Below are positions 3,042 through 57,616 of a stretch of 64,000 bases of DNA, piece after piece (the first letter of the stretch is position 1; every line of letters starts with the position of its first letter). The translations under genes and the position numbers were made by a program. A model generated the notes under the pieces. It saw only the letters and a program-made list of their open reading frames with translations, ran no database searches and was not told the DNA's origin. Source of the stretch: a virus (Duplodnaviria > Heunggongvirae > Uroviricota > Caudoviricetes); the IMG/VR virus record IMGVR_UViG_3300029286_001043, positions 28,228 through 92,227 of that record; one strand, given 5' to 3'.

Positions 3042-3182
3042 TCATAACTCCAATTTGGCTGCTGATTGACCGCACTAAAACATTTTTACTATTTCTAGTA
3101 GTTTTAGATACTCGGTTATTCCAGCAAGTTTCGACATTTTCTATATAAATTTCTTTATATAGCCGCATATATATCCCTTCCT

Positions 3183-5448: not shown

Positions 5449-5507
5449 TAGGCTTCCCTGAATTCACCCAGTTATTAAAATTGGATTACTCCAATTTGGG
5501 ACACAGT

Positions 5508-5768
5508 TTAATTACGCATCCCTAAGAAGTCGATGTTACTAGAATCAGTAGTTTCAAAAAGTTTCGAAACCCTTGATTTACCAGCATTTAACAGAGCGTT
5601 TTCTGCGCAACGAGATATGTTGTGCTTCATATTCTCTGTTAACTCTTTTCCTTGTTTCTTCATATAACCTTCAGCAGCTTTGATAATCGGTGCCCATGCT
5701 TCAGACAACGCGGTTCTCTCTGCATTCTGAGCGGCCATACGCGATTCTAATAATTCGTTGATCTTCAT
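5508..5768 (-). CDS. hypothetical small protein
   Basis: 86-aa ORF on the gene strand between the protease-scaffold gene and the HEG. Confidence 0.4.
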   Translation of the reverse strand: MKINELLESRMAAQNAERTALSEAWAPIIKAAEGYMKKQGKELTENMKHNISRCAENALLNAGKSRVSKLFETTDSSNIDFLGMRN

Positions 5769-5791
5769 TTAAATAATTCTCCTTTAATTTG

Positions 5792-28004: not shown

Positions 28005-28238
28005 CTATTTACTCGGTTTCTTTACCTGGTCAACATAAAAATCTACAGGTTTTAATTCTTTTCGCTTTACTGACAACTTATTATTTGGATTGATTACCTC
28101 CTTTTCTCGGCATTTAGTCAAATGACCGTGCCATTTTTTAATTCCTCGTACTTTCTTCTCATAAGCTTCAACCCCCCTCTTCTTCATTGGGGTTTCTCTA
28201 CGCCTTGTACTTGTTTTTACTGTCTTTTCTTTTCCCAC
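28005..28238 (-). CDS. small basic (Lys/Arg-rich) protein, paralogue of ORF 33436..33666
   Basis: 77 aa. C-terminal ...KRKELKPVDFYVDQVKK matches ...YRKELKPLDFYISKIRK in the paralogue. Similar size and charge. Confidence 0.45.
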   Translation of the reverse strand: MGKEKTVKTSTRRRETPMKKRGVEAYEKKVRGIKKWHGHLTKCREKEVINPNNKLSVKRKELKPVDFYVDQVKKPSK

Positions 28239-39683: not shown

Positions 39684-42608
39684 TTAAGAATATAAACTAC
39701 TTACTCCGGATCTTTTTATAATGTTTAAAGTCGAATCAGAATACGAACTCAATTCGGGCGTATGGGATATTACAAGAACAACCTTGTCTTGTCCTTCACT
39801 ATGTAACATTGCCCCGATATTTTCTTCGCCTTGACGATCCAAATATGAAAACAATTCATCAAATATTAATAAACCTAAAACCCCAGTCTTTAATCCATGT
39901 CGATTCGCTAACCATTTGTTCAAAGCTAAACAGAGAGATACGTCGCATCGTCTCTTTTCTCCACCACTGAGCGCATCGTATTTTCGGGTATTCCCGTCTA
40001 TATTTATTTCTAGATTTAATTTATTACGATCTTCTCCTGATTTTAAAACCTTAGTAGGACTTACAACGATACTCATATCGCCATTTGACGCACTAGACAA
40101 ATAAGCATTAACTAATAAATTGAACTGATTGCAAAAGCGATCCAATAATAAACCACGAATACCCTTCGAAGAAAAGGCGTGTTTCCAGAAATTAAATATT
40201 TCAATATCACTATTTAAATTATTAACATCTTTTTCTATATTAGAAGATTCTATGACCTGTTCAGCTAAAACCGCAATAATAACTTTCTGATCTCGAACTA
40301 CTTTATCCGCACGATTATTAACATCGGCTATAGTATTTTTGCATTCTCGTATTAACGATAGATAATTATCAATTTGAGAATCGATTGAATTTTTTCTTAA
40401 CTGATTTTCTTGTATTAATTTATCCTGATTCATTTTATCCAGTATTAAGAAATTCTTTTCGTTTTTAATTTCCTTTATTACTTGAGTATAGTTTATTCTA
40501 TTTAGGTTAAAAATTGCAAGTTTATCCTCAAGTTGTTTCTTATTTCCATATAATATAGTTAAGTGATTATGAAGGTCTTTATTGCTATTTCCTAATAATT
40601 GTATCTCTTTATTCTTGTCCTCAACAAACAAAGAAATATTATGCTTTTCAATTGTTGACCCACATTTATCACACCGACTTCCTAAATGACTATTATTCAA
40701 TGAATTAATTTCGCGGTTTAATTCTTCAATTTGATTAGTATTAAATTTAAGTGTATGTTCTAATTCAGTTATCTCAGCCGAAAATTCCTCTTTTTCGGTT
40801 CTAATAACATCTAATTCTTTACTAACGTCTTCAATCATAATTTCATATTTATCTTCACGTTCTTTTAATCCTGATAATTTAACATCAAAATCAATAATTT
40901 TAATCTCTTCTACCGTAACACTGCTCGCCTTTAACTCAGTTATCTTACCTTTATATTCTTCTAACTTAGTATTGTGATCTTTAATCCAATCGTTCATAGT
41001 ATCTAACTCGTTATTGAGAAGTTCAATCTTATTCTTATTATTAGATATTTCATTGTCTACTGTTTGCTTCTGTAATTTTAACTCTTCTTGTAAATCTCCA
41101 TTGTTATTGATCTTATCCACTATTATATCATGTAAATCATCATACGTTTCAAATCCTAATAAATTTGTAATCATATTAGTCTTCTCGGCATCAGAAAAAC
41201 TAGTCAAGGCTTTCAAATTCTCTTGACTAAAATAACAAGAAGATAGGAAAGTATTCTTATCAAATCCTAATATACTATTTAAAATTGCCTGCCTGTCATT
41301 CTGTTTAAGTCCTTCAGTAAGTTCTTGTTCAAATCGGTTCGAAGATATTAATGAAGATTTAAAAATACTTAATCCCCGCTCCCGAGATCTACAAATAAGA
41401 TAATAGTTTTCCGCATCATTAATATCTAAAATAACCTGACAATCCTTTTCACCCCGTCGTATTACGTCGTCGCCAGTTAATCCCTTGGTTGTTTCACCGA
41501 ATAAGCACCAAAATAACGAATCTACAAAACTGGTCTTACCGGACCCGTTACTATCTTTATCTTCATTGTTTCCGGTAATTAAAGTAAACCCATCTTTAAA
41601 GGTATATTTTATTTCACCGATTGACATAAAATCTTTAATACTACACCGAACAATTTTACCTGTAAATATTTTACTTCCTAAATTAGATTTATTTATTAAA
41701 ATTGGTTTTACGATATTAAAATATTCTTCAGATTTATTATTTAATACTATCCATTCCTTTAATATACTTTCAAAATCCTCAGATTTCAATCTCTCATCAA
41801 AAGTCTTAGGAACTATCATACTAACAACATTAGGCAGATTACTCTTCTTATCTGCCCCAACAATCCGGTAATAATTGTAATCGTCGACTACTTCTTCAGC
41901 AGAAACAACGGTTCTGAACTCTGGGTATTTAAGTGGCAGGAAGGTTATTGAATTATCATCGGTGTCTATTAAGTACACACCGCGCGTCCCAGTATCACCG
42001 AAATTTAAATGCATAGGTGATCCAACAATAAAACAATTGTCTGCTAACTTTTCTCTTTGATGAATATGGCCAAAAAATACCATCTTGTTTTGAAGAGATA
42101 ATAATTTCCAATTTACTCCATCCTCAAATGTATAATTGTTTACCTTCGCTCCGATAGGAGTCTGATGAACAACTACTATATCATAATCCTTTATCCTATC
42201 ATAATCTATTTTCTCATTAAACCCGATTAACCTAATTTTTATATCTAAATTTTCGGTAACCGGAACTCGGTCAAAAACATTAGTAGAGAAATGAAACCAC
42301 TCAGGATCAATGCGATTTATCATATCATGATTACCTGGAACAAAGAAGCACGGTACTTTAGACTGATCTAAAGAATTATAAAATTGATGAGCTATATTGA
42401 GTGCTTCGACAGGAATAGAACCTACAGAATGAAAAAGGTCTCCGCCATTAATGAAGACCTTTACCTTATTCTTTACAATTATATCGGTTATTTGTGACAG
42501 AACTTGCTGCTGATCAAATAATCTCTTAGGAAGTAGAGTATCTGAATGCAACCCAAAATTGTTCCATCGATGCAAATGTATATCTGATGCTATACAAATT
42601 TTACTCAT
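39684..42608 (-). CDS. fused Mre11-Rad50 recombination nuclease/ATPase (T4 gp47+gp46 equivalents in one polypeptide)
   Basis: N-terminal phosphoesterase motifs ASDIHLH, GGDLFH, PGNHD, VVHQ, GHIH. Then Rad50 Walker A GNNEDKDSNGSGKTSF, long coiled coil with CDKCGS zinc hook, signature LSGGEKRR, Walker B LLIFDE, H-loop VISHT. 974 aa. Confidence 0.75.
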   Translation of the reverse strand: MSKICIASDIHLHRWNNFGLHSDTLLPKRLFDQQQVLSQITDIIVKNKVKVFINGGDLFHSVGSIPVEALNIAHQFYNSLDQSKVPCFFVPGNHDMINRIDPEWFHFSTNVFDRVPVTENLDIKIRLIGFNEKIDYDRIKDYDIVVVHQTPIGAKVNNYTFEDGVNWKLLSLQNKMVFFGHIHQREKLADNCFIVGSPMHLNFGDTGTRGVYLIDTDDNSITFLPLKYPEFRTVVSAEEVVDDYNYYRIVGADKKSNLPNVVSMIVPKTFDERLKSEDFESILKEWIVLNNKSEEYFNIVKPILINKSNLGSKIFTGKIVRCSIKDFMSIGEIKYTFKDGFTLITGNNEDKDSNGSGKTSFVDSLFWCLFGETTKGLTGDDVIRRGEKDCQVILDINDAENYYLICRSRERGLSIFKSSLISSNRFEQELTEGLKQNDRQAILNSILGFDKNTFLSSCYFSQENLKALTSFSDAEKTNMITNLLGFETYDDLHDIIVDKINNNGDLQEELKLQKQTVDNEISNNKNKIELLNNELDTMNDWIKDHNTKLEEYKGKITELKASSVTVEEIKIIDFDVKLSGLKEREDKYEIMIEDVSKELDVIRTEKEEFSAEITELEHTLKFNTNQIEELNREINSLNNSHLGSRCDKCGSTIEKHNISLFVEDKNKEIQLLGNSNKDLHNHLTILYGNKKQLEDKLAIFNLNRINYTQVIKEIKNEKNFLILDKMNQDKLIQENQLRKNSIDSQIDNYLSLIRECKNTIADVNNRADKVVRDQKVIIAVLAEQVIESSNIEKDVNNLNSDIEIFNFWKHAFSSKGIRGLLLDRFCNQFNLLVNAYLSSASNGDMSIVVSPTKVLKSGEDRNKLNLEINIDGNTRKYDALSGGEKRRCDVSLCLALNKWLANRHGLKTGVLGLLIFDELFSYLDRQGEENIGAMLHSEGQDKVVLVISHTPELSSYSDSTLNIIKRSGVSSLYS

Positions 42609-43356
42609 CTAATTCATTTTCTGTCCATATTAAATATTTCATCGAATTTTCTCGACAGTATTGTTCTCCAGCATTAAACTTTAAAATATTTATAATAGTA
42701 TTTAATTTTTTAGATGGTTTAACTTCAATCAATACTTTACGTTTATCATTATACTCAACTAAAATATCCGGGACATAAATCCGCGCTTCTCCTTTATAAA
42801 TATACGGAATACTAAAATAGCATCGGCCGTACCGCGTAACAGTATAATCATGTTCTAATTTAATGTAAGCTTTTAATTCATACGAAGATTGAAATCTAAT
42901 TTCGCAATTATTTTTATATGATTTAAAATAGCCAGCAATATAACCAATCATTTGATGTTTTTCAACTTTAGATATATATTTAGGATCAGACCAGCATTTT
43001 AAACTACTTATTTTTCTATTTATCTTTAATTTTTTAGCTTTCTTTTTTCCGTGAATATTTTCATATGATCGGTCTTTAAGCTTACTAATTTGATTTAATA
43101 ATAAAATTTTTCGTAAATTATGATATTCTTTAGCGCGTTCAGAACCGTAAATATCTTCATATGTTCTGCCTCGAGTAGGATGATTAGTTGAAAGATTGTG
43201 CCCTAAAAAATATCTCCAAGAATCCTTAGTTTTAACAATTTTAGATTTACCACAGCCGCATAAACAAAAACGGGTCTCTCTCGGCAGCATATGAGTACCC
43301 TTCTTTGCTTTGCTTATATTTCGGCAATGTTTAGCCGTAAATATTATTTTGCCCAT
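42601..43356 (-). CDS. homing endonuclease-like protein (Zn finger + PD-(D/E)xK)
   Basis: CLCGCGK N-terminus. YGSERAKEYHNLRK repeat. VPDILVEYNDKRKVLIEVKPSKKLN core. Confidence 0.6.
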   Translation of the reverse strand: MGKIIFTAKHCRNISKAKKGTHMLPRETRFCLCGCGKSKIVKTKDSWRYFLGHNLSTNHPTRGRTYEDIYGSERAKEYHNLRKILLLNQISKLKDRSYENIHGKKKAKKLKINRKISSLKCWSDPKYISKVEKHQMIGYIAGYFKSYKNNCEIRFQSSYELKAYIKLEHDYTVTRYGRCYFSIPYIYKGEARIYVPDILVEYNDKRKVLIEVKPSKKLNTIINILKFNAGEQYCRENSMKYLIWTENELDE

Positions 43357-43883: not shown

Positions 43884-44186
43884 CTATCTATTCGTCCAGA
43901 TGAAAAGAATATTATCCTTAATCGCAAATTTTATATACGTCTTAATCCCTAAATGCTTAGCAGCAGTCCGGATACCGATCTTTATAGTATTGATCTTGCC
44001 TTTATTCGCGCCAGTAATATCCATTTGAACGCACTTAGAAGAATCAATTATTTTTAGAGTATCGATTATCGGATTGTATTTACTCTTGCTCCTCTGTAAC
44101 ATCTCCAATTCGGCAGTTCTGTCAACTACACATATTCCATCAGGAAGAATCGGTAAAACATTATCTAATTTCTGGCCTTTTCTCAT
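43884..44186 (-). CDS. hypothetical protein
   Basis: 100-aa ORF. Confidence 0.35.
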   Translation of the reverse strand: MRKGQKLDNVLPILPDGICVVDRTAELEMLQRSKSKYNPIIDTLKIIDSSKCVQMDITGANKGKINTIKIGIRTAAKHLGIKTYIKFAIKDNILFIWTNR

Positions 44187-44890
44187 TTCTTCCCCCCGGT
44201 CGTATAAAATTCAATTGTCATGCTCTTACAATTTTCCTTTAATTCACAAGCAATACAGTCTGGGTTAATTGGGTTAAATTTCTGCCCGAAACATTCCTTT
44301 TTAACCGCTGGTTTATCTTCCTTTTTATCAACTTTATTTTGGCCAGTCGGTTCAGAACTTGCACCACTCATCATATCATTAATCCTGGTGGCAGTAGGAA
44401 TTTCAAACTTTGTTTCAAGATCGATAAAATTATCAATCATCTTCTTTTTTAAATCTTCGCTAATCACTTTGCTTTCCTTCATCGGAAGTACTTCATAAGT
44501 AGTATCGAGCTTAGTACCCTTTCTAGTAATTACTATATCATACTCAGTAATCTCGCCGTATTTCTGAACTAAATTCTGAAACTTGCGCTTCAAAGTTATT
44601 CCAAACTTCAAGATCTTAATATTCTCATCCTTTCGGTCAAGAATGTTAATGTAATAATGCAATTTAGGCATATTACCTGCCGCGCATAATGGACAGCCGT
44701 CTCCCATACATAATATATATTTCATCTTCGCTTCAGGAACATAATGAACATTCCTAAATATATATTGGCCTAATAACCGAATTAAATTATCACCCTCATC
44801 GAGAGTTTTAAATTCGTCTTTACCGAAAATCTCTTTCTCCTGTGCTGAATCTTCCCAGGTCTTTGCTTTAAACATATTCTGCTCTGCCAT
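44183..44890 (-). CDS. putative single-stranded DNA-binding protein (T4 gp32-like) with Zn motif and acidic C-terminal region
   Basis: GDNLIRLLGQ...HY...CMGDGCPLC parallels gp32 GQAVIRFLP...H...C...C..C. Weak. Confidence 0.4.
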   Translation of the reverse strand: MAEQNMFKAKTWEDSAQEKEIFGKDEFKTLDEGDNLIRLLGQYIFRNVHYVPEAKMKYILCMGDGCPLCAAGNMPKLHYYINILDRKDENIKILKFGITLKRKFQNLVQKYGEITEYDIVITRKGTKLDTTYEVLPMKESKVISEDLKKKMIDNFIDLETKFEIPTATRINDMMSGASSEPTGQNKVDKKEDKPAVKKECFGQKFNPINPDCIACELKENCKSMTIEFYTTGGKK

Positions 44891-44891
44891 T

Positions 44892-45305
44892 TTACTCCTC
44901 CTTAGTTAATAATTCTGGGTTTTCGTAAATATTACCAATAACTTCGCCATTGTTCGCTATTTCTGAAATATATTTAGTAAAAGGAATCGGAATAAATCTT
45001 CCTTCTTGAAATTCAATAAAAAATATCTTCTTTATTTTTAGTACATCACTTGTAAATTTAATCACATCACCCTCGTAAATCTCCTTGCCATTCTTATCAA
45101 GCAAGCCAGTGAATTGCATAAGTTCTATTTCGTCTAATTTACAGAAATGACCGTTATTATTATCTAACTGAACGACAAAATCTCCTTGAATAGAAACTTC
45201 AGTAGGGGCACTTCCGACAAGAAAAGCACCGAGCCGGGTTAAAACGTCTACTACCCCCAGTATCTTTTCGGTTTTATGCCAAGCTCTAAATTTGATCTCT
45301 CTCAT
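44892..45305 (-). CDS. YopX-family protein
   Basis: N-terminal MREIKFRAW, 137 aa. Confidence 0.6.
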   Translation of the reverse strand: MREIKFRAWHKTEKILGVVDVLTRLGAFLVGSAPTEVSIQGDFVVQLDNNNGHFCKLDEIELMQFTGLLDKNGKEIYEGDVIKFTSDVLKIKKIFFIEFQEGRFIPIPFTKYISEIANNGEVIGNIYENPELLTKEE

Positions 45306-45306
45306 T

Positions 45307-45753
45307 TTAATTATCCGTTTTTGGCGTCGCTAAAAATATATCGACATCGCGCTCAAATATGCTCTTCATAATATAATGACCTGCCATTATATCTTCTCGA
45401 ATATTCCTTAAATAATTGCGATACAACTCACCCTTACGTAATTCATCGCCGATTAAGATATATTCAGTATTGTTCTCAGCAACGCGCTTCTTCCCGGCTT
45501 CAGATGTTTCATTAGATTCACTTAATAATTTTGAATAATTCAATTTCATTTTAGTCTCTATTTCGCGATTATGATTATCAGTACCCATTATACACTCGTC
45601 AATAGAAGATACTAGAGACCAGTACTTAACTGCTAATTTTCGGGCAGATTCATATCCTGAACATTTATCAGTATCTACATCCAGTTCTCTTTTGATATTC
45701 AAAAGACCATTTACTATACTAATTATCTCGTCTAACGGTTTTGTCTTTAACAT
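45307..45753 (-). CDS. hypothetical protein
   Basis: 148-aa ORF. Confidence 0.35.
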   Translation of the reverse strand: MLKTKPLDEIISIVNGLLNIKRELDVDTDKCSGYESARKLAVKYWSLVSSIDECIMGTDNHNREIETKMKLNYSKLLSESNETSEAGKKRVAENNTEYILIGDELRKGELYRNYLRNIREDIMAGHYIMKSIFERDVDIFLATPKTDN

Positions 45754-45800
45754 ATTGTCTCCTCTATTATAGGATATTCTTATTTATAGTATTTTTGCAA

Positions 45801-47108
45801 CTATTTTTTGTCTTCGTTATCAAGAAGCCAGATCGTAAACTTATAGTTTTCAGGCACGGTATCAAAATTACCAGCTCTTAAATAATCAACCTCAGCTTTT
45901 GAAGAGATCTTCGGGCAATAAACCATAGCATAAGTAGTTCGCCTATTTATTAATGCCTTTAACATTTCATAGTGTCTTTCGTAAATATGGAAAGAATCCA
46001 CAAAATGATAATATTCGCCGTACTCTAATTCCGGATATGTATACTTAAGACTAATAAACATCATTTCATGTATAAATGAAAAAGTTGGTAAATCACTACC
46101 TAATCCGAGTATACTGTCTTGGGATCTCATTTTCACAGTCATATTTAATTTATTATTTCGTATTCTAAAACTAATGTTATACGTGCATGGTATTTCCTTC
46201 ATCTTCTCATTCCTAGTATGATAAGGTTGAAGAATAATAATCGCAGCTCTTCTAGAATCTTTATCTTTAATAAGAGCTTTTAAAACATAATCAAATTGGT
46301 TTTCTTGCCCGAAAATATATTGTCCATAATTAGAATTTATCGACCCGTCTTCATTAATAAATTCTTTCCACATTTTAGCATATTCACAAATAGAAATATC
46401 AAATTTATCGCCTTTAAGATACCATAAAAATTCCTTTTTAATATAATTAATATTTAATTTTCGCGGTTCAAAATTAGTAAATCTTACATATGGTGGAAAT
46501 ATATATGAAAAATTCTCAATTTCTTTGACTTTCAATCCTCTAGGAGCAGATTCTTTTCCATATTTATTCAGTACTCTATATATTTTTAATAATAAATTTC
46601 GATGATGTTTTTCGCCATGTAAAAATCCCCATTCTTCATTTTTTCTTTTAACTGTTTCTTTTTGTTTATTAATTGTAAATTCTGATTTTCTTTTACCGAA
46701 CATAGGATTACCCTCCCCAATATTCATTTCTCTAACCTTTATTCGTCCTTCTTCTGTTTTCATCCATGATTTTTCGCCAATTTTCTGTTTACTTTCATCA
46801 GTATGAGTTTTACCGAACATACCATTTTTCGGACCTAATAATGTCGCGCCGAATGCTTCATTCTTAATATTATAAGATTTTATATCGTCAGCCGCATTAC
46901 ATTCCTTTAATAACCGTTCTTCTTCCGTCCTATAGTTTTCCCCAAAATATAAGATCTCTCTTCGGTATTTATCAATTCCATGTTTCTTAATTGCATGATT
47001 AAAAATCCGGCTAGAACTAATATATCCGTCTTCAGGATTGCCGCCATGAGACCCTATATAATATTTGCATGTTTCTATATTAACCCATTTATAAACAAAC
47101 CCAATCAT
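45801..47108 (-). CDS. in-frame fusion: GIY-YIG/NUMOD3 homing-endonuclease module (aa 1-~160) + complete thymidylate-synthase-family domain (TS or dCMP hydroxymethylase-like)
   Basis: GFVYKW...KYYIGS (GIY-YIG). GPKNGMFGKTHTDESKQKIGEKS and GEGNPMFGKRKSEF (NUMOD3). Then LLKIYRVLNKYG..., EFLWYLKGDKF, YGQYIFGQ, DSRRAAIIILQPYH, IPCTYN, RSQDSILGLGSDLPTFSFIHEMM match TS blocks (ELLWFLKGDTN, YGFQWR, SRR, PCH, RSxD..LGxPFN). No in-frame start codon between the modules. Confidence 0.7.
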   Translation of the reverse strand: MIGFVYKWVNIETCKYYIGSHGGNPEDGYISSSRIFNHAIKKHGIDKYRREILYFGENYRTEEERLLKECNAADDIKSYNIKNEAFGATLLGPKNGMFGKTHTDESKQKIGEKSWMKTEEGRIKVREMNIGEGNPMFGKRKSEFTINKQKETVKRKNEEWGFLHGEKHHRNLLLKIYRVLNKYGKESAPRGLKVKEIENFSYIFPPYVRFTNFEPRKLNINYIKKEFLWYLKGDKFDISICEYAKMWKEFINEDGSINSNYGQYIFGQENQFDYVLKALIKDKDSRRAAIIILQPYHTRNEKMKEIPCTYNISFRIRNNKLNMTVKMRSQDSILGLGSDLPTFSFIHEMMFISLKYTYPELEYGEYYHFVDSFHIYERHYEMLKALINRRTTYAMVYCPKISSKAEVDYLRAGNFDTVPENYKFTIWLLDNEDKK

Positions 47109-47390
47109 TTAATCTCCTTTTTCATTTTTTGACCACGCTAATACTTGATACATTGAAAATATATCGTTTTCAGATAACCCAGCAATCTTAGCTAATTTTA
47201 ATAATCTACCCATCATTTCAACTAATTCGTACTTTCGATCTAAATTATCTAATCCACCGGGATTAATACAATCATGATCGAAATTATCACAATTTTGAAA
47301 CATTACTTCCAATTTATTTGTAAAATCACGGTTATCCCAATTAGTTACTGTACTTTTTCGTTCCGCTTCTAATTTGTCAACATCTAACAT
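47109..47390 (-). CDS. hypothetical protein
   Basis: 93-aa ORF abutting the fusion gene. Confidence 0.35.
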   Translation of the reverse strand: MLDVDKLEAERKSTVTNWDNRDFTNKLEVMFQNCDNFDHDCINPGGLDNLDRKYELVEMMGRLLKLAKIAGLSENDIFSMYQVLAWSKNEKGD

Positions 47391-47561
47391 CTAAGAGACT
47401 CCATCTAAAAGGTTATAATAATTACCATTAATCTTATTTATACTCGGCCTAAGCTTCTCAAGTTGTTCAATTGACAACTCTTTAACTATGTCGTCTACAT
47501 TAACTGCTATTTGAACTAATAATTCTCGTTCCTTCAAATTCACTTTAGCCTCGTCAGTTAT

Positions 47562-47598
47562 ATCCTAAATATAAAACTGGGGAGAAATCCCCAGTTTC
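47562..47598 (-). terminator. Rho-independent terminator after the SPFH gene
   Basis: AAACTGGGGAgaaaTCCCCAGTTT perfect 10-bp stem (47573-47596), followed on the minus-strand RNA by UUUUAUAUUU, just 3' of the stop at 47602. Confidence 0.6.
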
Positions 47599-47601
47599 GG
47601 C

Positions 47602-48654
47602 TTATTTACTATCAGATGAAACTAAAACTCCTCCAGCTTGGCCAATTTGAGCAAACGTCTTTTCAGGCAATACTGTAATTCTATTTACTAATTGCGCCAT
47701 CATATCAGCTTTATATTTAGCTACTTCTACTTCAGCACGTCTTCCACCTGATTCACCATCATAAAGAGAAACAGATTCTAATTTCTTAACTTCAGCTCTT
47801 GCTTTACCTACAGCAAGTTCACCACTTGCACGAGCTAAGTTAGAATCTCTTTCTGCTTCTGCATCAAGTACTGTCTTACGCGCTTTAGCTTCTGCATCTG
47901 TAACTTGAGTAATTTTAGACGCTTCAGCAGTTTGTCTTGCTTCTTCTACTTTAGCCTGGCTCATAGCAAAGATACGCTTAGCTTCTTCTTGCGCGGCAAG
48001 GGTTTCTTCAACTTTACGTAATTTTTGCTGCATTGCTATCTGTTTACCTGCTATTTCTTGTTCATATTGAGGATCAAGATAAACTTTGTAAATGATAGTA
48101 TTCTCGATAACTAATCCTCTATCAACTAACACGAGGTTAGATTTAAGAGAATCTTCAATATCATTCTTGAATTTAACAAATCCTTCACCAGAATAGATGT
48201 TTAAGGCTGTTCTGGGCCGCGCAATCTCATTCACTACATCAATAATTTCTCTTTTAAGTACAACTGATTCGTATGTCTTACCAATACCCTGCTTATGAAT
48301 TGTTACTGCTTTATCTGGATTTAAGTGGTAATTGACTGACATTGCTATCCAAGCTTTTTGTCCACCGTTTTCACCAATATCAAGTAAGATTCTCGGATAT
48401 TCTGCTTCCGGGTTAGTAGCAGCATCATCAAAAGTTATCTTTTGAGTACCGATGTTGTAGGTATGTACATCATCAACGAAGTTATTATAGAAGTGCATAC
48501 CCGGTAATAACAATTCGTTCTTAACACCAGCCCAATTCTGTACTACACCTACTTCATTACCTTCTAACTTTACTGCGCCAAAAAACCCAAATAAAATAAA
48601 TAATAGGATTACACCTCCAATGCATACTGCAATTAATTTGCCTAAACTCCTCAT
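47602..48654 (-). CDS. SPFH/Band-7 (stomatin/prohibitin/HflK-like) membrane protein
   Basis: N-terminal TM (LIAVCIGGVILLFILFGFF), SPFH core, then Ala/Glu-rich coiled coil (AQEEAKRIFAMSQAKVEEARQTAEASK...). Strong RBS GGAGGTG. Confidence 0.7.
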   Translation of the reverse strand: MRSLGKLIAVCIGGVILLFILFGFFGAVKLEGNEVGVVQNWAGVKNELLLPGMHFYNNFVDDVHTYNIGTQKITFDDAATNPEAEYPRILLDIGENGGQKAWIAMSVNYHLNPDKAVTIHKQGIGKTYESVVLKREIIDVVNEIARPRTALNIYSGEGFVKFKNDIEDSLKSNLVLVDRGLVIENTIIYKVYLDPQYEQEIAGKQIAMQQKLRKVEETLAAQEEAKRIFAMSQAKVEEARQTAEASKITQVTDAEAKARKTVLDAEAERDSNLARASGELAVGKARAEVKKLESVSLYDGESGGRRAEVEVAKYKADMMAQLVNRITVLPEKTFAQIGQAGGVLVSSDSK

Positions 48655-48711
48655 CTCACACCTCCTGTTTCGGTTTCGCTTCTTGTGTATAGACTCTATA
48701 ATCTTTCATTT

Positions 48712-48816
48712 CTACTCCTTGTTAATTTTCTTTACTATCTTTGTTACAATTTTGTAGATTATCCATAAAAAGAATATTAATATGGCTAAATCTACAAGTA
48801 CTATAAGTCTTCCCAT
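48712..48816 (-). CDS. very small single-TM membrane protein upstream of the SPFH gene
   Basis: Hand-found 34-aa ORF MGRLIVLVDLAILIFFLWIIYKIVTKIVKKINKE with RBS GGAGGGAAAG. Below the track cut-off. Confidence 0.3.
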   Translation of the reverse strand: MGRLIVLVDLAILIFFLWIIYKIVTKIVKKINKE

Positions 48817-48851
48817 CTTTCCCTCCTTTATTTACTTATTCTGTTCTCCTA

Positions 48852-49325
48852 TTATAGTATATTCTTTTTGTCTATCTTTTTGCCAGTCTTTTTTACGTAT
48901 CCTAGTTTCGGGTCTTCTTGTCGTTTTATATTCAGCATCTGTTTCGACTTTACATAATCATAAAAATCCTCAGCTGTCATTCCCCATACTAGAGCCAAGT
49001 CCATAAGGAAACACATCATGTCGGCAATTTCAAATCTACCTTCTACCAAATCGTGCTTAAAGTCTTTAGGATATTGCTTCCATGTTTTCCACCGAATCTC
49101 CTGCCTTAATTCAGCTAACTCATCTGAAAGAGCGATCAGATAGATGTTAGTCCATTTATCACGATCTTCTGGTGAAATATTATCTAAATTATGGAAGCGC
49201 GAAGCAAACCCTTTCTGCAGCGCAAACAATTCATCCAACTTCGGACCTACATTATAATAATGAGATAAATGCTCTTTACACTCCTGCTTCAGTATTGACA
49301 TCTTTCCTCCTCTGATATTTGACAA
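48852..49325 (-). CDS. all-alpha NTP pyrophosphohydrolase (MazG/dimeric-dUTPase-like; candidate dCTPase/dUTPase)
   Basis: LSDELAELRQEI and EIADMMCFLMDLA resemble the paired EExxE motifs of MazG-type NTP-PPases. The true start may be an internal Met. Confidence 0.45.
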   Translation of the reverse strand: MSNIRGGKMSILKQECKEHLSHYYNVGPKLDELFALQKGFASRFHNLDNISPEDRDKWTNIYLIALSDELAELRQEIRWKTWKQYPKDFKHDLVEGRFEIADMMCFLMDLALVWGMTAEDFYDYVKSKQMLNIKRQEDPKLGYVKKTGKKIDKKNIL

Positions 49326-49761
49326 CTTGTATACCGGCTTTAATTAATAATTCAATTCCATCATAATCAACTTTTTCATATACCACCTTCTTTATCCCAG
49401 CTGAAATAATATTTCTGGCACACATTCTGCAGCATCCTTTATTTACATATAACTCTGCCCCAGCCGTTGATATTCCATTCTTGGCGGCCTGAAGTATCGC
49501 GTTATTTTCCGCGTGCTGACAGTCTCCAATCTCATATTTAGTACCAGAAGGAACGTTCCATCGTGAACAATCTTCAGGTTTTTCGCAATGTGAGAATTTA
49601 GGAAGAGTACCATTATACCCGGAACTTATAATCCGGCCTTCTTTAACTAAAACACAGCCGACCTGACTTTTAATACATGAAGATCTTTTCGCTACAACAT
49701 CACAAATTTCTAACATCATTTCATCAATACTAATTCGGTCATCCATTACAGAATTCCTCAA
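49276..49761 (-). CDS. cd: dCMP deaminase (zinc-dependent CMP/dCMP deaminase family)
   Basis: SSCIKSQVGCVLV, CQHAENNAI (H-A-E) and GCCRMCARNI (C..C) zinc-ligand motifs. Confidence 0.8.
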   Translation of the reverse strand: MRNSVMDDRISIDEMMLEICDVVAKRSSCIKSQVGCVLVKEGRIISSGYNGTLPKFSHCEKPEDCSRWNVPSGTKYEIGDCQHAENNAILQAAKNGISTAGAELYVNKGCCRMCARNIISAGIKKVVYEKVDYDGIELLIKAGIQVVKYQRRKDVNTEAGV

Positions 49762-50392
49762 CTTGTGCTAGTGTATTGATAGCTTTGCCATACTTAGCAT
49801 GAAATTCATCATGACATTCTGAACAGAATGTAATACCTTTCTTTAAAAACCAAAAAGGTTTATAATTAATCGCTAATTTAATCAAATGTTGGATATTATA
49901 ATTAAATTTAGAATATTTATTTAGAAAGTTATCTATTAATATTGATAAAGATATTATATGATGTGCTACCAAATAACCAGACTTTCTCTTACATTTTTGG
50001 CAAGTATAATGATCACGTTTAAAAACTGATTTAATCCATTCCTTATTTTGTAATAAATTCCTAATTTTATTTCCTAATGGAGTAATTCCGCCTTTCCAGT
50101 GTGGAGTATTTTTTCCAGTTAAACCCCTTGTCCAACCACATTCAGGCCGGCCCTTTTGGTTTAAACCGTTCAATCTGCATGTTTCTAATTGTTTTTTAGT
50201 TTTAGGCGCCGTCCCCATTCGGCGAACCTGATCAAGTTGTTTCTTAGTCTTAGGCATAGCATTCATTTTCCGGCAGTTGATTAATGAGGCTTCAAGTTGT
50301 TTTTTGGTTCGAGGCAATTTACTAGCATATTCAATAACTTTCAACATATGCTTTCTCCGCCAAACTTTAAGTGATTTAGATCCCTTTTTCAT
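49739..50392 (-). CDS. HNH homing endonuclease-like protein with TKKQLE repeats
   Basis: Triplicated ..PKTKKQLE.. repeats. RDHYTCQKCKRKSGYLVAHHIISLS...KGITFCSECHDEFH. Confidence 0.65.
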   Translation of the reverse strand: MKKGSKSLKVWRRKHMLKVIEYASKLPRTKKQLEASLINCRKMNAMPKTKKQLDQVRRMGTAPKTKKQLETCRLNGLNQKGRPECGWTRGLTGKNTPHWKGGITPLGNKIRNLLQNKEWIKSVFKRDHYTCQKCKRKSGYLVAHHIISLSILIDNFLNKYSKFNYNIQHLIKLAINYKPFWFLKKGITFCSECHDEFHAKYGKAINTLAQVEEFCNG

Positions 50393-52559: not shown

Positions 52560-53523
52560 GGTTTTTATACAGCTCTTTAACTTCGGTTATTAATATCTTC
52601 TTATATTCGTCTTCGTTTATCTCATCGAGAAATTTCATCTTCTCAGATAATTCTAAAAGATCTGTAAACTTACTGAATTTAGGCATGAAAGAATTCTGAC
52701 TAAATATGATAGTTCCTAGCAAAAGAGATTCAAATATTCTAGGAGCTAAGAAATCAGATTTCAAATATACTGGTTTACTAATCTGTACAGTATAAGGAGA
52801 AGAAGCTAATTGCTCGTATCCATATGCTCGATCTTTCCGTGATATTACTTCATAAATAAATGGATGCTTAATCCAAGTACCCTGAACCTTAATCATCAAT
52901 TCAGGATAATACTTCTTTAACTCTGCAAAACTATCTTGAATACCTTCCTTGAAATATTCATTACCTATATAAGTAAGTTGAAAGGTTAGTTTGGACTTAA
53001 AATAACTATCTATACAGGCTAGAACATCCTCTTCTAATACTGGAATGATTTTAGTTACATCCCCCGTGCCCTTAGGATAATCATATTTGCCATTGAAATA
53101 AGTTACTATATGTTCGTATGGCTTCTTAACCTGTTCATCGGTATCAATTATGATACATTTATCTTTGAACTTATTATATATTTGTTCAAAATCATACGTA
53201 TCGAGACTTCCATCTTTTAATCTACTATAATTTCTAAATCTATTCTTCAAAAACAATATATCGTAATCGGTATCTAACACCTCTTCTAATGATACATTAT
53301 CTTTATCAACTAATTTATCATATAAGTCTTCGCGTATCTCAGGAAGGACATGATATTTAGGAGTCTTATAATCATAAACTGTATCATAATAATGAATATC
53401 AAATTTATCGATCTTATATTCTTTAGCTAACGAATGAAGAAGGAATAATTGATACAGCGGATGAGATGGAATATTTACATCATGGTCGAACATGCGACCG
53501 AAATATCCGAAAAGGGCTTTCAT
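52543..53523 (-). CDS. hypothetical protein (speculative: DNA-modifying glycosyltransferase candidate)
   Basis: 326-aa ORF coupled to the DNA polymerase gene. No confident motif. Confidence 0.35.
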   Translation of the reverse strand: MKALFGYFGRMFDHDVNIPSHPLYQLFLLHSLAKEYKIDKFDIHYYDTVYDYKTPKYHVLPEIREDLYDKLVDKDNVSLEEVLDTDYDILFLKNRFRNYSRLKDGSLDTYDFEQIYNKFKDKCIIIDTDEQVKKPYEHIVTYFNGKYDYPKGTGDVTKIIPVLEEDVLACIDSYFKSKLTFQLTYIGNEYFKEGIQDSFAELKKYYPELMIKVQGTWIKHPFIYEVISRKDRAYGYEQLASSPYTVQISKPVYLKSDFLAPRIFESLLLGTIIFSQNSFMPKFSKFTDLLELSEKMKFLDEINEDEYKKILITEVKELYKNLDNKS

Positions 53524-54176
53524 TTACAAAATTCCTTTATTTTATCCTTCAATGCCATAAACTCCTCAGTCCTTAAATATCGAGTAGCTGATGGATGTGT
53601 TACCTTTATATAGTTCTTAAGTTCTAACCCGTCAATTATCTTATCATATATAGGATAGCTTCCTAAGAAGATTATTCTCTGTCCATCAAAGAATTGCAAC
53701 TCCTTTATAATATCAGGATAATATTGTTTAACCATCTCAACATTATACAAATTTTTAAAGAAATATTCTTTACAGACATTTGTAAAGTACCATTTATAAT
53801 CAAAGCTTAACATCTCATGTAAAGTCTTGCTTGATGGACCGTATTGCCAATTGCTTTCCCCGAAACTGCTCATTGAAAATCCGGGAGCAATTCCTACTAT
53901 AATAATCGACTCTTTACTTACATATCCTCTAGGAGGAGTCATAACCGTTTCATATAATGGTTTATAAATCTTCTCCATATACTTATATACAAAAGTATCA
54001 TTTGAATGTACTATCCCTGGGTATTTAAGAACTAAAGGAATGCGAACATCCTCTTCATTAGGAAGATAAAAGGTTGTCTGCTTATTATTCCTAACAAACA
54101 GTTTATCTTCATCAGATACTTTTGTCAGATCATATTGATGCTGAAATATATATGTAAGTATTGCCTTATCTATCAT
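53520..54176 (-). CDS. uracil-DNA glycosylase superfamily protein (family 4/5-like)
   Basis: IIIVGIAPG...FGESNWQYGP (GEAPG-type motif A with I in place of E) and C-terminal KVTHPSATRYL (HPS motif B). Confidence 0.45.
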   Translation of the reverse strand: MIDKAILTYIFQHQYDLTKVSDEDKLFVRNNKQTTFYLPNEEDVRIPLVLKYPGIVHSNDTFVYKYMEKIYKPLYETVMTPPRGYVSKESIIIVGIAPGFSMSSFGESNWQYGPSSKTLHEMLSFDYKWYFTNVCKEYFFKNLYNVEMVKQYYPDIIKELQFFDGQRIIFLGSYPIYDKIIDGLELKNYIKVTHPSATRYLRTEEFMALKDKIKEFCK

Positions 54177-55132
54177 TAGACTTTATGGCTGCACGTCGGG
54201 CAACAGCCAACTGTCTCCATATTCTGTACATGTAATCCTGCTTCCAATAACTTATATCGAAATCCACCTAATGTCCGATTAGCCATTGAAGTAAGATCGT
54301 TGATTACGTCAAAGAATGTTAATGTCTTGAGCTCTACCTTTTCAGACCATTCCTTCCACTTCTTATTTAATACGCCTTTAGGATATATATGTCCAAAGGC
54401 GCTTGAAATCTCGCGAACATTCTCGATTGGCTGATTTGCTTTAGTAGAAAACCAGCTAGACAATTCCATACCTTGACGGAATATTGAATCAGACTTCAGA
54501 AAATCGAAATCGTCATTATTCCATAGTTCAAATTTCTTAGTTAACCCATTAAGACAAACTAGTCGATTAACCCCACAGCTGATCTTTACACTACCGTTCA
54601 AACTAACAAATACTCCAGCATCAAGGAAATCTCCTTTACGTGCTTCAATCCTTCCTTTAATAGTAGAAAGGAACTGAATCTCGGCATGATCGCCTTCTCC
54701 ACCGATTACCAATTCGTCATAGTCTTTATAGTCGTCTAATTTAACCTTATCAAAAAAATCCTTCAACGTAATATCCTTTTTGTTTGCTTTAAATACAATT
54801 TTATTTCTAAGCGTCAAATCTCCTTCATCAGTATTTATTACATCGAATAAGAATTTAGGATCTGGATTGCCGCTTTCAAGCCAATACGTTTTAATTATAT
54901 CTTTAACTACGTCTATTCTATTATTCTTAATTAACATCCGGCCGATTCGTCCCATCGGGGCAACGATCTCTTTCATGTTTAACTCCGCACTATAATTTTC
55001 GTCGTGAATCAAAATATTCGGTTTTTCATAAATATCAGAATTCAAAAATGTTAATACTCTAGAACCTTTAATTTCAATCGTTGAAAGTCTATCTGTTATT
55101 TCGCTACTTTTACCACGCCACCAATTAACCAT
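54176..55132 (-). CDS. hypothetical protein (C-terminal CCPTCSH)
   Basis: 318-aa ORF. Confidence 0.4.
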   Translation of the reverse strand: MVNWWRGKSSEITDRLSTIEIKGSRVLTFLNSDIYEKPNILIHDENYSAELNMKEIVAPMGRIGRMLIKNNRIDVVKDIIKTYWLESGNPDPKFLFDVINTDEGDLTLRNKIVFKANKKDITLKDFFDKVKLDDYKDYDELVIGGEGDHAEIQFLSTIKGRIEARKGDFLDAGVFVSLNGSVKISCGVNRLVCLNGLTKKFELWNNDDFDFLKSDSIFRQGMELSSWFSTKANQPIENVREISSAFGHIYPKGVLNKKWKEWSEKVELKTLTFFDVINDLTSMANRTLGGFRYKLLEAGLHVQNMETVGCCPTCSHKV

Positions 55133-55697
55133 TTAACACCCCTCCTTTATTTTTAAAATACTCGATCCAATATTCTCTATTAAAATTCGTTTTAACATGA
55201 CATCCATCACATAGGGTAATCAGATTATCAGGATTACAGTTCTTCTTATTATAATCAATATGGTGAACATCAGTCGCTGGCTCTTTACCACAGATCTGAC
55301 AAGTATAATGATCTCGTTCTCTAATACTTCGGCGCAAAGTTTCCGTCCAATCAACCGAATATGGCTCAAATGATATGCCACCTCGCCAACTTGAATTTTT
55401 ATCTCCTCTAGGACATACACGTTTACAAGTTTCACTTATTTTTTTCTTTATTTCATCAGAAAGATATTTTCCTTTATGCGAAATACTTAATTTTAATTTC
55501 GTTTCAGGAGAAACAATCTTTCCCTTATGAATTTTACTTACCATATCTTTATAAGATTTAGTATTACATCTAATTTTATTTTTTTCACTTATTTTGTGTC
55601 TTGTTTCATTAGAACATAAATTACCAATATGCGATAACTTCATATTCTTTAGATGTATTTCAGAAAATTGTTTTCGTTTATAAACTCCACTAGGCAT
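55125..55697 (-). CDS. HNH homing endonuclease-like protein with NUMOD-like repeats
   Basis: RDHYTCQICGKEPATDVHHIDYNKKNCNPDNLITLCDGCH. Repeats SPETKLKLSISHKGKYLSDEIKKKISE. Confidence 0.7.
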   Translation of the reverse strand: MPSGVYKRKQFSEIHLKNMKLSHIGNLCSNETRHKISEKNKIRCNTKSYKDMVSKIHKGKIVSPETKLKLSISHKGKYLSDEIKKKISETCKRVCPRGDKNSSWRGGISFEPYSVDWTETLRRSIRERDHYTCQICGKEPATDVHHIDYNKKNCNPDNLITLCDGCHVKTNFNREYWIEYFKNKGGVLNG

Positions 55698-56739
55698 TTC
55701 TATTTACCTCAAATATGTTTAACTCTCCTAATTTAATATATTCTCTTTTGTATAAATGTTGCATAACATCTTCTCTATCGTCTAAATAAGTAAAAGGTAT
55801 CTTTAAATCAGTTATCATATCAATACAGTATTCCTTGAGTACTTTAGACGATAACCCGATATTCTTGTTATTCCATATATAATAGATAGGCCGGTCAATA
55901 ACACTAACTAACTTTAAGTGTATATAGTCTTCAATTTTTTCTCGGCCAGTTATAATCAGCAATGGTTCATTCAAATTGCCGAGAGAATTAATATAGTTAA
56001 CAACTTCGATTCTCAACTCAGCATTCTTCATTTCGGGATAACCTAACTTCAGAATTGTCCCATCCAAATCTGAAATTATAATACCGTTCTTCTTTTCAAA
56101 TATACTAAGAGTATTCAAATGTTTCGTAAGATACTTTTTTATTCGGCTATCATAATAGTAACAATCAAATCTGCATTCGGCTATCTCGGTACATAAATCA
56201 GAAAAATCGGAAGTACTAAACTTCATACCGTCATCTCGATAGAAAATTTTAACCTCACAACCTGCTAATCTTAATCTGGCTACCAAACATTTAAACTCCT
56301 CATTCACATCTTTTTCCCATTGCTCCTTCATCCCAGAATCCCGCCGAATGAAGATCCAGAACTCCGACATAGGTTTAAACATCTCTAGATAGGCTTCAAG
56401 GTAGGTGTCCATGGTCACATGCCTGATTACCTTAGAATATACGTAACTGGATAGAAAACCACGATCTACGAATAGTATTTTGGAAAGATCTGAAGTCTGA
56501 TTTATGAAGTCAAATAGAATTCTCCAGTCGTGTTTAAGGCTCTCGTCTAAATTAACTTTCTCTCCGGCAAAATCAGAACCCATTTGATAGTTAGAACGAA
56601 AGTAAACGAATGAATTAGGATCGGCATTAATAACTTGCTTTATTTTGGTTGTCTTACCTGCACCATCTGTTCCCGAACAAAAAAGTATCTTACGAAACAT
56701 TTGAATACTCCTTAAATTTTTGTAAATATATTTTATCAA
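55690..56739 (-). CDS. bifunctional P-loop kinase / HAD phosphatase, T4 polynucleotide kinase-phosphatase (PseT)-like
   Basis: N-terminal Walker A FCSGTDGAGKTT. C-terminal IISDLDGTI (DxDGT) and IITGREK (HAD motif II/III region). Confidence 0.5.
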   Translation of the reverse strand: MIKYIYKNLRSIQMFRKILFCSGTDGAGKTTKIKQVINADPNSFVYFRSNYQMGSDFAGEKVNLDESLKHDWRILFDFINQTSDLSKILFVDRGFLSSYVYSKVIRHVTMDTYLEAYLEMFKPMSEFWIFIRRDSGMKEQWEKDVNEEFKCLVARLRLAGCEVKIFYRDDGMKFSTSDFSDLCTEIAECRFDCYYYDSRIKKYLTKHLNTLSIFEKKNGIIISDLDGTILKLGYPEMKNAELRIEVVNYINSLGNLNEPLLIITGREKIEDYIHLKLVSVIDRPIYYIWNNKNIGLSSKVLKEYCIDMITDLKIPFTYLDDREDVMQHLYKREYIKLGELNIFEVNRNA

Positions 56740-57616
56740 AGATTATTAATCCTTTATCTATATATTCTTTAATGACGGCAGAACTATAATTAGGAATATC
56801 TTTCTCAATTATTATAATAAATCGTTTTCCAAATCGTTCTTTCGCCGCATTAAATTTAGCTTTATTATAGGTTGTATTTATTAGTTTTTCAGGTTTTACT
56901 TCTGCTATTTGATCGGTTTTAGGTAAATAAAAATCAGGAGAATAAGTTCTTTTATTTCCAGAAATAGGATCAATATAATCAATTCTATATTTTATAATTT
57001 CAGCTTTATTAAATTGTATTTGTGACTCAGTTAAAAACATCATATATTTCAGCTCTAAAATACTCCTAAAATAAATCCCATTAAATCTTCCCTTCCAACC
57101 GTTCCCCGATTTTTTAGGCGAAGGCTTACCGAACATTGGATTATTTTCGCCGGAAGACGAAATACTTAATTTATGTTTAATCTTATTCGCCTTATCAATA
57201 CCGAATCTCTGTTCCCAAGTTTTACCCTTAGCATCTTCATGACATTTTTCAAACTTACAATATTTACCACCATAATTTGGATTATTTTTCCCACTACTAT
57301 TTTTACTAAATTTTTCTTTAACTAATTTAGCCTTTTCAACACCTAATATTTGTTCAAGAGTTTTCCCGCTTTGCTTTCTACTCCAAATCTGAATACAGGA
57401 AGTTCTTAATCCTAACGTATACGCTATTTCTTGTTTACACCCTCGACATAAATCTTTATTATATTGTCTATAGCCGCTAATGACATTGTAATATTTTCGT
57501 CTATATATCTTCCCACAAGTATCGCACTTCACATCACATGACTGAGTAACGATTATAGTTCCATTACGTATTTTTCCTGTTTCACACTTATTCTTCTTTA
57601 ATTTAGATAATATCAT
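56690..57616 (-). CDS. homing endonuclease-like protein (Zn finger, NUMOD3, PD-(D/E)xK)
   Basis: CDVKCDTCGK. GKNNPNYGGKY and GENNPMFGKPSPKK repeats. YSPDFYLPKTDQIAEVKPEKL core. Confidence 0.6.
   Translation of the reverse strand: MILSKLKKNKCETGKIRNGTIIVTQSCDVKCDTCGKIYRRKYYNVISGYRQYNKDLCRGCKQEIAYTLGLRTSCIQIWSRKQSGKTLEQILGVEKAKLVKEKFSKNSSGKNNPNYGGKYCKFEKCHEDAKGKTWEQRFGIDKANKIKHKLSISSSGENNPMFGKPSPKKSGNGWKGRFNGIYFRSILELKYMMFLTESQIQFNKAEIIKYRIDYIDPISGNKRTYSPDFYLPKTDQIAEVKPEKLINTTYNKAKFNAAKERFGKRFIIIIEKDIPNYSSAVIKEYIDKGLIIFDKIYLQKFKEYSNVS

Follow-up and report, generated by a model that had tools for sequence, protein, structure and literature searches.

A GIY-YIG/NUMOD3 nuclease module fused in frame to a predicted dCMP hydroxymethylase in tailed phages

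The DNA analysed here is a stretch of 64,000 nucleotides from a virus of the class Caudoviricetes (IMG/VR record IMGVR_UViG_3300029286_001043, positions 28,228 to 92,227), which we call the window; unless another locus is named, all coordinates are counted from its first letter. On its minus strand lies an open reading frame (ORF) of 435 amino acids (aa), the N-terminal part of which is a GIY-YIG/NUMOD3 endonuclease module, while the remainder is a complete enzyme of the thymidylate synthase (TS) family. Both halves belong to well-known kinds of protein. According to our analysis their in-frame fusion is real and old, and its features, which the following argument makes use of, are these:

45801-47108, minus strand: the whole fusion ORF, 435 aa, with an ATG start and a TAG stop (45801-45803)
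47114-47119, minus strand: Shine-Dalgarno (SD) sequence AAGGAG, 5 nt before the ATG (47108-47106), as read from the sequence
46839-47108, minus strand: GIY-YIG nuclease domain, aa 1-90, with GFVY (Y6), YYIGS (Y17), Y29, E63 (I-TevI E75) and S78-Y79-N80 (N80 being I-TevI N90)
46779-46835, minus strand: first NUMOD3 motif, aa 92-110, GPKNGMFGKTHTDESKQKI; best stretch of Pfam PF07460 (92-110), with N95, G96 and M97 invariant
46665-46721, minus strand: second NUMOD3 motif, aa 130-148, IGEGNPMFGKRKSEFTINK; second Pfam NUMOD3 stretch, with G131, N134 and M136 nearly invariant
46599-46664, minus strand: helical linker and junction, aa 149-170, ...KRKNEEWGFLHGEKHHR; W-x-F-L in all fusions, from alignment and model
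45804-46613, minus strand: TS-family enzyme domain, aa 166-435, a predicted dCMP 5-hydroxymethylase, from Pfam, PHROGs, the T4 dCMP hydroxymethylase structure 1B49, Foldseek and the starts of standalone homologues
46248-46253, minus strand: R286-R287 of the DSRR block; R286 invariant, R287 in at least 90% of sequences
46185-46196, minus strand: active-site stretch E305-I-P-C308; C308 is the catalytic nucleophile (ThyA C146, T4 C148) and E305 corresponds to ThyA L143 and T4 D145
46092-46127, minus strand: R328-S329-Q-D331...G-S-D339; D331 corresponds to ThyA D169 and T4 D171, D339 to ThyA N177 and T4 D179 (cytosine specificity)
46701-46718, minus strand: possible internal start, the M136 ATG (46701-46703) after GGGGAGGG (46711-46718) with a 7-nt spacer, by sequence match

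The AAGGAG overlaps the 3' end of an upstream 93-aa ORF, whose TAA (47109-47111) abuts the ATG of the fusion. A preliminary description of this DNA, made from its letters without database searches, had claimed a GIY-YIG/NUMOD3 module joined in frame to a complete TS-family enzyme, and Pfam, PHROGs and fold matching agree with it; all the peptide blocks it quoted (LLKIYRVLNKYG, EFLWYLKGDKF, DSRRAAIIIL, IPCTY and RSQDSILGLG) are found in the 435-aa translation. It had left room for a C-terminal half that TS-family models would not recognise and for a sequencing frameshift between the modules, and neither was found. Pfam places Thymidylat_synt at residues 215-394 (E=7e-25) and NUMOD3 on two stretches (E=6e-8), and PHROGs assign a homing endonuclease to aa 1-199 (E=1.7e-16) and thymidylate synthase families to the remainder (E=2.5e-42). 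An identical 435-aa protein is called on 9 contigs, which include ENA, JGI and Logan records. Among 5.8 billion proteins searched there are 24 more full-length fusions, aligned over 98-100% of the length of the window protein at 47-58% identity, with an unbroken reading frame and a conserved junction (K-x-E-x-W-x-F-L…K-H-H…F-x-K-I-Y) throughout the alignment. The AlphaFold model of the fusion, built from an alignment of 97 homologues, is a confident single chain (predicted local distance difference test, pLDDT, 92.4). Because the identical protein recurs on 9 contigs and the continuous frame in 24 divergent relatives, the fusion is no frameshift or assembly artefact, and the idea that two genes have been joined by a frameshift, a mis-assembly or an intron or intein that went unrecognised is left with next to no probability; against it stand also the single-chain model and the RNA searches, which gave no Rfam match above the gathering score anywhere in the window and no intron-like match at E<=1 between 45000 and 48000. 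At the nucleotide level, megablast of the region 44000-49000 gave no match among 50,697 phage records.

The sole name attached to these proteins in any source is 'thymidylate synthase', and the alignment of the C-terminal domain to ThyA and to hydroxymethylases that the preliminary description proposed has overturned this name. The TS fold, the catalytic cysteine (C308), R286/R287, R328, S329 and D331 are all conserved (Pfam PF00303, E=7e-25, and fold matches). The best PDB sequence match of the enzyme half is the T4 dCMP hydroxymethylase (1B49, E=7e-20), with MilA next and true thymidylate synthases weaker; Foldseek, applied to the model of the fusion, likewise ranks MilA and the T4 enzyme above all thymidylate synthases, and the NCBIfam ThyA equivalog models all fall far short of their cut-offs, the best reaching 73.8 bits where 327 are required. 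The residues pair with those of the T4 enzyme as C308-C148, E305-D145, D331-D171 and D339-D179 (codons checked). Across the 97 aligned homologues D339, D331 and C308 are invariant. At the position of E305 about 90% of the fusions have Asp.

Among phage TS homologues N177D marks a dCMP substrate, L143D/E marks the hydroxymethyl-forming enzymes, both T4-like and MilA, and D169N marks the newly found 5-hydroxy-dCMP synthases (PMC13326640, 2026). At the ThyA positions N177, L143 and D169 the fusion carries Asp, Glu and Asp, which is the signature of the T4 gp42 type. A thymidylate synthase ThyA (EC 2.1.1.45) is ruled out by D339 at N177, by E305 at L143 and by the score mentioned above, and a 5-hydroxy-dCMP synthase of the RB69 gp48 / DLP3 gp80 type is ruled out because the invariant D331 keeps the Asp of ThyA D169, with no D169N. 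We hold with fairly high confidence that the enzyme half probably converts dCMP to 5-hydroxymethyl-dCMP (5hm-dCMP) with methylene-tetrahydrofolate, similarly to T4 gp42, for the synthesis of modified phage DNA; 5hm-dCMP as the product we infer from the signature residues together with the gene context.

For the model of aa 1-165 (pLDDT 92.1) the only significant matches in the PDB are to the catalytic domain of I-TevI (1MK0/1LN0, probability 1.00, TM-score 0.62), and the sequence profile of the module also matches I-TevI 1LN0 alone, at a marginal E=0.14. In the alignment Y6 and Y17 pair with I-TevI Y6 and Y17, E63 with E75 and N80 with N90. Y6, E63 and N80 are invariant among the 25 fusions and Y17 is kept in all except P0025, where it is Ala; the free-standing relatives show the same positions with little or no variation. 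GFVY and YYIGS as a whole are conserved among the fusions. An exhaustive search of 1.84 billion cluster representatives, used instead of a word-indexed protein search that gave 5 matches with the N-terminal module alone, found 5164 relatives of this module, almost all of them free-standing proteins of 150-330 aa, the nearest at 44-51% identity. The free-standing proteins aligned with the fusions continue after the second NUMOD3 with a zinc-finger tail of about 75 aa (GKTYEEIHG…CPHC…RYHF..C), or in P0129 with a helix-turn-helix (HTH); in the fusions a short helix that closes with W-x-F-L stands in its place, and the enzyme follows. On sequence grounds, the module is the head and NUMOD3 linker of a Seg-type endonuclease minus its usual DNA-binding domain. 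The earlier wording 'I-TevI-like module' was right as to the GIY-YIG fold and the two NUMOD3 repeats; its kinship is with the free-standing Seg-type lineage and not with the intron type, and the group I intron structure that was to be looked for in the flanks did not appear in the Rfam searches of the window given above. An intron- or intein-encoded endonuclease is ruled out by the same searches and by the position of the module, which is N-terminal and not internal to the enzyme.

Among the loci inspected, the closest free-standing relatives are P0122 and P0123 (214 aa, about 50% identity), encoded on T4-like contigs directly downstream of a 244-aa TS-family gene, the product of which is 57% identical to Tequatrovirus gp42. 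These two proteins are 58% identical to the product of a seg gene annotated as 'SegD' after gene 42 in some Tequatroviruses. In T4 itself segD has another place, between genes 23 and 24 (PMC2988022), and because of this the label 'SegD' in the records of gene-42 phages is one given by similarity only. The T4-like gene-42 enzymes share only about 32% identity with the enzymes of the window family. The nuclease lineage is thus found beside dCMP-hydroxymethylase genes in two settings, separate and downstream in the T4-like phages, and upstream and fused in the window family. Collinearity of the fusion with T4-like phages, to which 'two-piece' tblastn matches had pointed, was rejected, the order there being gene 42 and then seg, in separate ORFs.

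The enzyme subfamily is large and mostly metagenomic. About 500 of the enzyme's homologues have no nuclease; they begin at positions equivalent to aa 163-171 of the window protein, and standalone members are about 265 aa long. The preliminary description had considered a homing endonuclease gene that captured the 5' end of td, and we reject this option, the enzyme domain being complete and its standalone homologues beginning exactly at the junction. On a 349-kb jumbo-phage contig (L016) the fusion is present, while on another jumbo-phage contig, of 291 kb (L019), only the W-x-F-L remnant is left, with a shared gene order of epimerase, enzyme and, further on, thymidine kinase; the L019 enzyme begins exactly at the internal Met of the L016 fusion. 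At a third locus, L009, the GIY-YIG region (3650-4000) is recognisable and carries two frameshifts, and the downstream enzyme (P0029) is intact with an internal Met start; the L009 contig has low coverage, and the same L009 protein is found on three contigs. W-x-F-L is kept as an N-terminal remnant in six nuclease-less homologues (P0028, P0036, P0056, P0064, P0079 and P0090). For the enzyme family, the nuclease half is dispensable.

Neighbour-joining trees were built for both domains, and they are star-like and unsupported. With this reservation, a single monophyletic clade of fusions in the enzyme tree was rejected: the identity of the enzyme domain is 59.8% between fusions and 59.4% between fusions and non-fusions, and many fusions are nearest to a non-fusion. 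In the tree of the nuclease domain 24 of the 25 fusions fall into one broad clade together with the free-standing proteins associated with gene 42.

Three further observations concern the architecture of these relatives. Ten homologues (P0026, P0027, P0030, P0034, P0037, P0039, P0042, P0049, P0099 and P0102) form a sub-clade with a different, Cys-rich N-terminal extension of about 40-60 aa (…PFICKICGRQS.ET.L.CD.DDFCIC..G.GC…), which has a zinc-ribbon-like look and no Pfam match. The fusion P0009 (606 aa, L016 5001-6821) possesses an extra C-terminal extension of about 160 aa, also with no Pfam match. At L009 a separate 278-aa NUMOD3 protein is encoded on the opposite strand (5115-5951), just downstream of the TS-like gene.

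Pairwise identity among the fusions averages 56% in GIY-YIG, 58% in the enzyme and 40% in the NUMOD3/linker part, and the ratio of nonsynonymous to synonymous substitution rates (dN/dS), calculated for one gene pair, P0018 and P0014 (dS about 0.8), is 0.15, 0.075 and 0.21 in the same order. Among the fusions the nuclease half is under purifying selection and is not decaying, being about twice as relaxed as the enzyme. In the model the helix 143-157 of the linker continues into the helix 166-183 of the enzyme.

The genes around the fusion agree with the assignment of its enzyme. Upstream on the same strand are genes for an NTP pyrophosphohydrolase/dUTPase_2, a dCMP deaminase, a family-B DNA polymerase (PolB) and a thymidylate-kinase-like protein, and downstream lies SSB; this context of nucleotide metabolism and PolB is in accordance with a dCMP hydroxymethylase. 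Related fusions adjoin glycosyltransferases and a dNMP-kinase-like gene, and the fusion travels as one unit in unrelated genomic contexts. Within about 15 kb of the fusion and among replication genes there are four endonuclease-like genes, recognised by domain matches:

42601-43356, minus strand: endonuclease-like gene
49739-50392, minus strand: endonuclease-like gene
55125-55697, minus strand: endonuclease-like gene
56690-57616, minus strand: endonuclease-like gene

They comprise a TnsA-like endonuclease, an HNH protein, an HNH protein with NUMOD3 and a NUMOD3 protein with a TnsA-like domain, so that the region around the fusion is unusually rich in genes of the homing-endonuclease type. A comparable gene is met at another fusion locus, L017, where a 212-aa HNH endonuclease with NUMOD3-like repeats (4327-4965) stands directly upstream of the fusion gene; it is missing from L020, which is otherwise syntenic, and from the P0005 contig, which makes it a second endonuclease presence/absence polymorphism at the locus.

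Some other neighbours deserve a mention. A 974-aa protein (39684-42608, minus strand) combines in one chain an N-terminal Mre11/SbcD-type metallophosphatase and a Rad50/SbcC-type SMC ATPase, normally the products of two genes. A protein of the uracil-DNA glycosylase (UDG) superfamily is encoded near PolB (53520-54176, minus strand), and at the locus L006 a UDG-family gene (3108-4004) abuts a standalone TS-like gene, near an S-adenosylmethionine (SAM) methyltransferase, a dCMP deaminase and a dUTPase; UDG-family genes near TS-like genes may be a part of a base-modification pathway. A membrane protein with a Band_7/SPFH domain lies near the TS-like gene both in the window (47602-48654, minus strand) and at L006 (6726-7553), in a relative that otherwise differs. 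The gap separating the Band_7 gene from the small ORFs ahead of the fusion contains a perfect, GC-containing hairpin of 10 bp, AAACTGGGGAGAAATCCCCAGTTT (47574-47597), which may be a terminator or a regulatory stem; a scan of 45000-48000 for promoters and terminators gave sites no more frequent than in shuffled sequence. The window has a GC content of 34%, and all its gene-like ORFs of at least 90 aa (1-64000) are on the minus strand, the plus-strand ORFs all overlapping longer minus-strand ones.

We propose that a selfish nuclease derived from a homing endonuclease rides here on the translation of a nucleotide-modification enzyme. To this leading reading as a whole we assign a probability of roughly 0.5; that the fusion is real and that its enzyme is of the cytosine-specific, hydroxymethylase type we hold with much higher confidence. 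One polypeptide would have two working halves: a Seg-type catalytic head with its NUMOD3 linker, which would have lost its own DNA-binding domain, would be welded to the enzyme through the conserved helical W-x-F-L linker. By its in-frame 5' position in a needed early gene the nuclease would gain the transcription of that gene and a good ribosome-binding site. TS-family enzymes are obligate dimers in which an Arg pair is donated across the dimer interface to bind phosphate, and since R286/R287 are conserved, each dimer of the enzyme would carry two nuclease heads and four NUMOD3 elements. The nuclease may then act in trans, cutting at or near the same gene those co-infecting related genomes that have no module, with preferential inheritance of the nuclease allele, by homing or marker exclusion, as the outcome. 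Indirect signs of homing are the presence or absence of the module at a syntenic locus (L016 and L019), the decayed copy at L009 and the scatter of fusions in the enzyme tree. A selfish nuclease is to us the simplest reading, because the lineage lives at this gene and is maintained by selection, yet is repeatedly absent.

Several points weigh against this proposal. Gain of the nuclease cannot be separated from its loss, because the trees are star-like and unsupported. The closest pairs of fusion and non-fusion enzymes are 76% identical or less, so that there is no sign of recent homing, and no near-identical pair differing only by the nuclease was found. The module is devoid of the C-terminal DNA-binding domain from which GIY-YIG homing endonucleases draw their affinity and specificity. 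No residue of the subfamily aligns with the catalytic R27 of I-TevI, the helix that bears it being absent from fused and free-standing members alike, and no substitute residue was identified. The prediction of 5hm-dCMP, and not of another C5 adduct, as the product draws on only three residues. Finally, purely selfish elements are seldom conserved almost as well as an essential enzyme, and domestication would account for this just as well. The main rival is a domesticated nuclease that would no longer home and would cut or nick DNA with unmodified cytosine, of the host or of competing phages, while the nucleotide made by the enzyme protects the phage's own DNA. T4 endonuclease II (EndoII, DenA) is a GIY-YIG enzyme that spares DNA containing 5-hydroxymethylcytosine (hmC), and the fusion would be functionally like this enzyme combined with gp42. 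GIY-YIG being nearly as conserved as the enzyme (56% and 58%, dN/dS 0.15), the missing sequence-specific domain, which fits a move to relaxed specificity, the structured and conserved W-x-F-L linker, which suggests an integrated architecture, and the occurrence of the fusion as one unit in unrelated contexts all speak for domestication. We nevertheless regard it as rather unlikely: the module is still about 50% identical to ordinary free-standing Seg-type genes, it is missing from most members of the family and decaying in at least one lineage, and no sequence feature points to discrimination between modified and unmodified cytosine. Still more tentative, and in our opinion improbable, is a single-polypeptide device that would mark self and cut non-self, where the dimer would make 5hm-dCMP and its two GIY-YIG heads, having abandoned site-specific homing, would attack unmodified-cytosine DNA; if true, this would be a logic similar to restriction-modification, acting through the nucleotide pool and arising from a domesticated homing endonuclease.

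Two other explanations, an internal start and an inert appendage, are ranked weaker than domestication. According to the former, which is compatible with either a selfish or a domesticated nuclease, one ORF would give two proteins, translation starting also or mainly at M136 (or an equivalent Met) to produce an enzyme of about 300 aa with a short NUMOD3 tail, the full-length protein being minor. The preliminary description had stated that no internal start with a ribosome-binding site exists at the junction. It is correct that there is no start codon in 46590-46680, the in-frame ATG, GTG or TTG codons between aa 100 and 200 being those at aa 116, 128, 136 and 192; what it overlooked, just beyond that range, is the M136 ATG with the strong SD-like GGGGAGGG 7 nt upstream. 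SD-like strings stand at the equivalent place in P0009 and P0018, the Met of P0009 coincides exactly with the start of the standalone P0079, and P0029 begins at an internal Met after the decay of its nuclease. However, these strings are made by the codons for G-x-G-N-P-M, and the one at M136 carries little weight because the Gly codons of the conserved NUMOD3 motif largely dictate it; the true domain boundary has no start codon, and because aa 1-100 are under purifying selection, the part ahead of M136 must be both translated and important. We therefore consider two proteins from this ORF improbable as well. The least plausible of these functional explanations, a doubtful one, is that the nuclease has no catalytic activity and that the N-terminal module serves only to tether the enzyme to DNA or to the replication machinery, or is a passenger being lost. 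The lack of an alignable R27 equivalent, the Ala at the Y17 position of P0025 and the loss or decay of the nuclease in several lineages are in its favour, and N-terminal additions appear to be tolerated, because another branch of the enzyme family carries the unrelated Cys-rich extension. A mere tether, however, would not need catalytic positions such as Y6, E63 and N80, invariant in the fusions, or Y17, kept in 24 of 25; the motif pattern is the same in free-standing relatives, and a dN/dS of 0.15 speaks against decay.

Returning to the selfish nuclease and its wider meaning, full-text literature searches, judged by title and abstract, gave no paper with a title or abstract matching this nuclease-enzyme architecture, and in a survey of jumbo phages (PMC7824862) the terms 'GIY-YIG' and 'NUMOD' are absent from the text. 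Homing endonuclease genes are known as free-standing or lodged in introns and inteins, and a lasting N-terminal domain of a nucleotide-modification enzyme would add a further mode of lodging. The fused lineage, which has lost the DNA-binding domain and stays under purifying selection across roughly 45-50% divergence, may be a snapshot of domestication. It is also a natural design in which a GIY-YIG head would be delivered by a dimeric partner that does not bind DNA, which is relevant to engineered Tev-fusion nucleases. Furthermore, the fusion points to a large clade of environmental and jumbo phage enzymes, so far uncharacterised and predicted to be dCMP hydroxymethylases, and as several members of the clade adjoin glycosyltransferases, DNA with modified cytosine is predicted in these viruses. 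Should the nuclease be no more than a hitch-hiker, the fusion would be a modest addition to the catalogue of homing endonucleases.

The fusion can be compared with several known systems. T4 gp42 (1B49/1B5E) and the CMP hydroxymethylase MilA (5JNH) share with it the TS fold, the catalytic Cys, Asp at N177, an acidic residue at L143 and Asp at D169, but they are about 26-32% identical to the fusion and neither has the 165-aa nuclease module. The free-standing Seg-type genes beside gene 42 ('SegD', P0122 and P0123) have 41-50% identity over GIY-YIG and both NUMOD3 motifs, the same residues and the same genomic partner, a dCMP hydroxymethylase gene. They are, however, separate and downstream and end in a zinc-finger (or HTH) tail of their own, whereas the fused module is upstream and has the enzyme in the place of the tail. 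I-TevI of the T4 td group I intron and I-BmoI of thyA resemble the fusion in the GIY-YIG fold, in a NUMOD3-type linker element and in the association with a TS-family gene; unlike them, the fusion has no intron, is not a separate ORF and lacks the R27 and the zinc finger/HTH of I-TevI, the similarity being marginal, as its E-value above indicates. T4 DenA, a GIY-YIG nuclease of a phage with hmC in place of C, is a separate protein without NUMOD3, and it would be a possible functional analogue if the fused module cuts unmodified DNA. The bifunctional dihydrofolate reductase-thymidylate synthase (DHFR-TS) of protozoa, which is among the fold matches of the fusion, also joins a TS-family enzyme to a large N-terminal partner, but that partner is a metabolically coupled enzyme and not a nuclease. 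Lastly, phage genes are known to be split or flanked by homing endonuclease genes, as with seg43(25) in gene 43 and mobE between nrdA and nrdB (PMC2988022). In these cases, as in ours, an endonuclease gene is lodged at an essential gene of nucleotide metabolism or replication; there the endonuclease has an ORF to itself, which splits or flanks the host gene, whereas the fusion is one translated chain.

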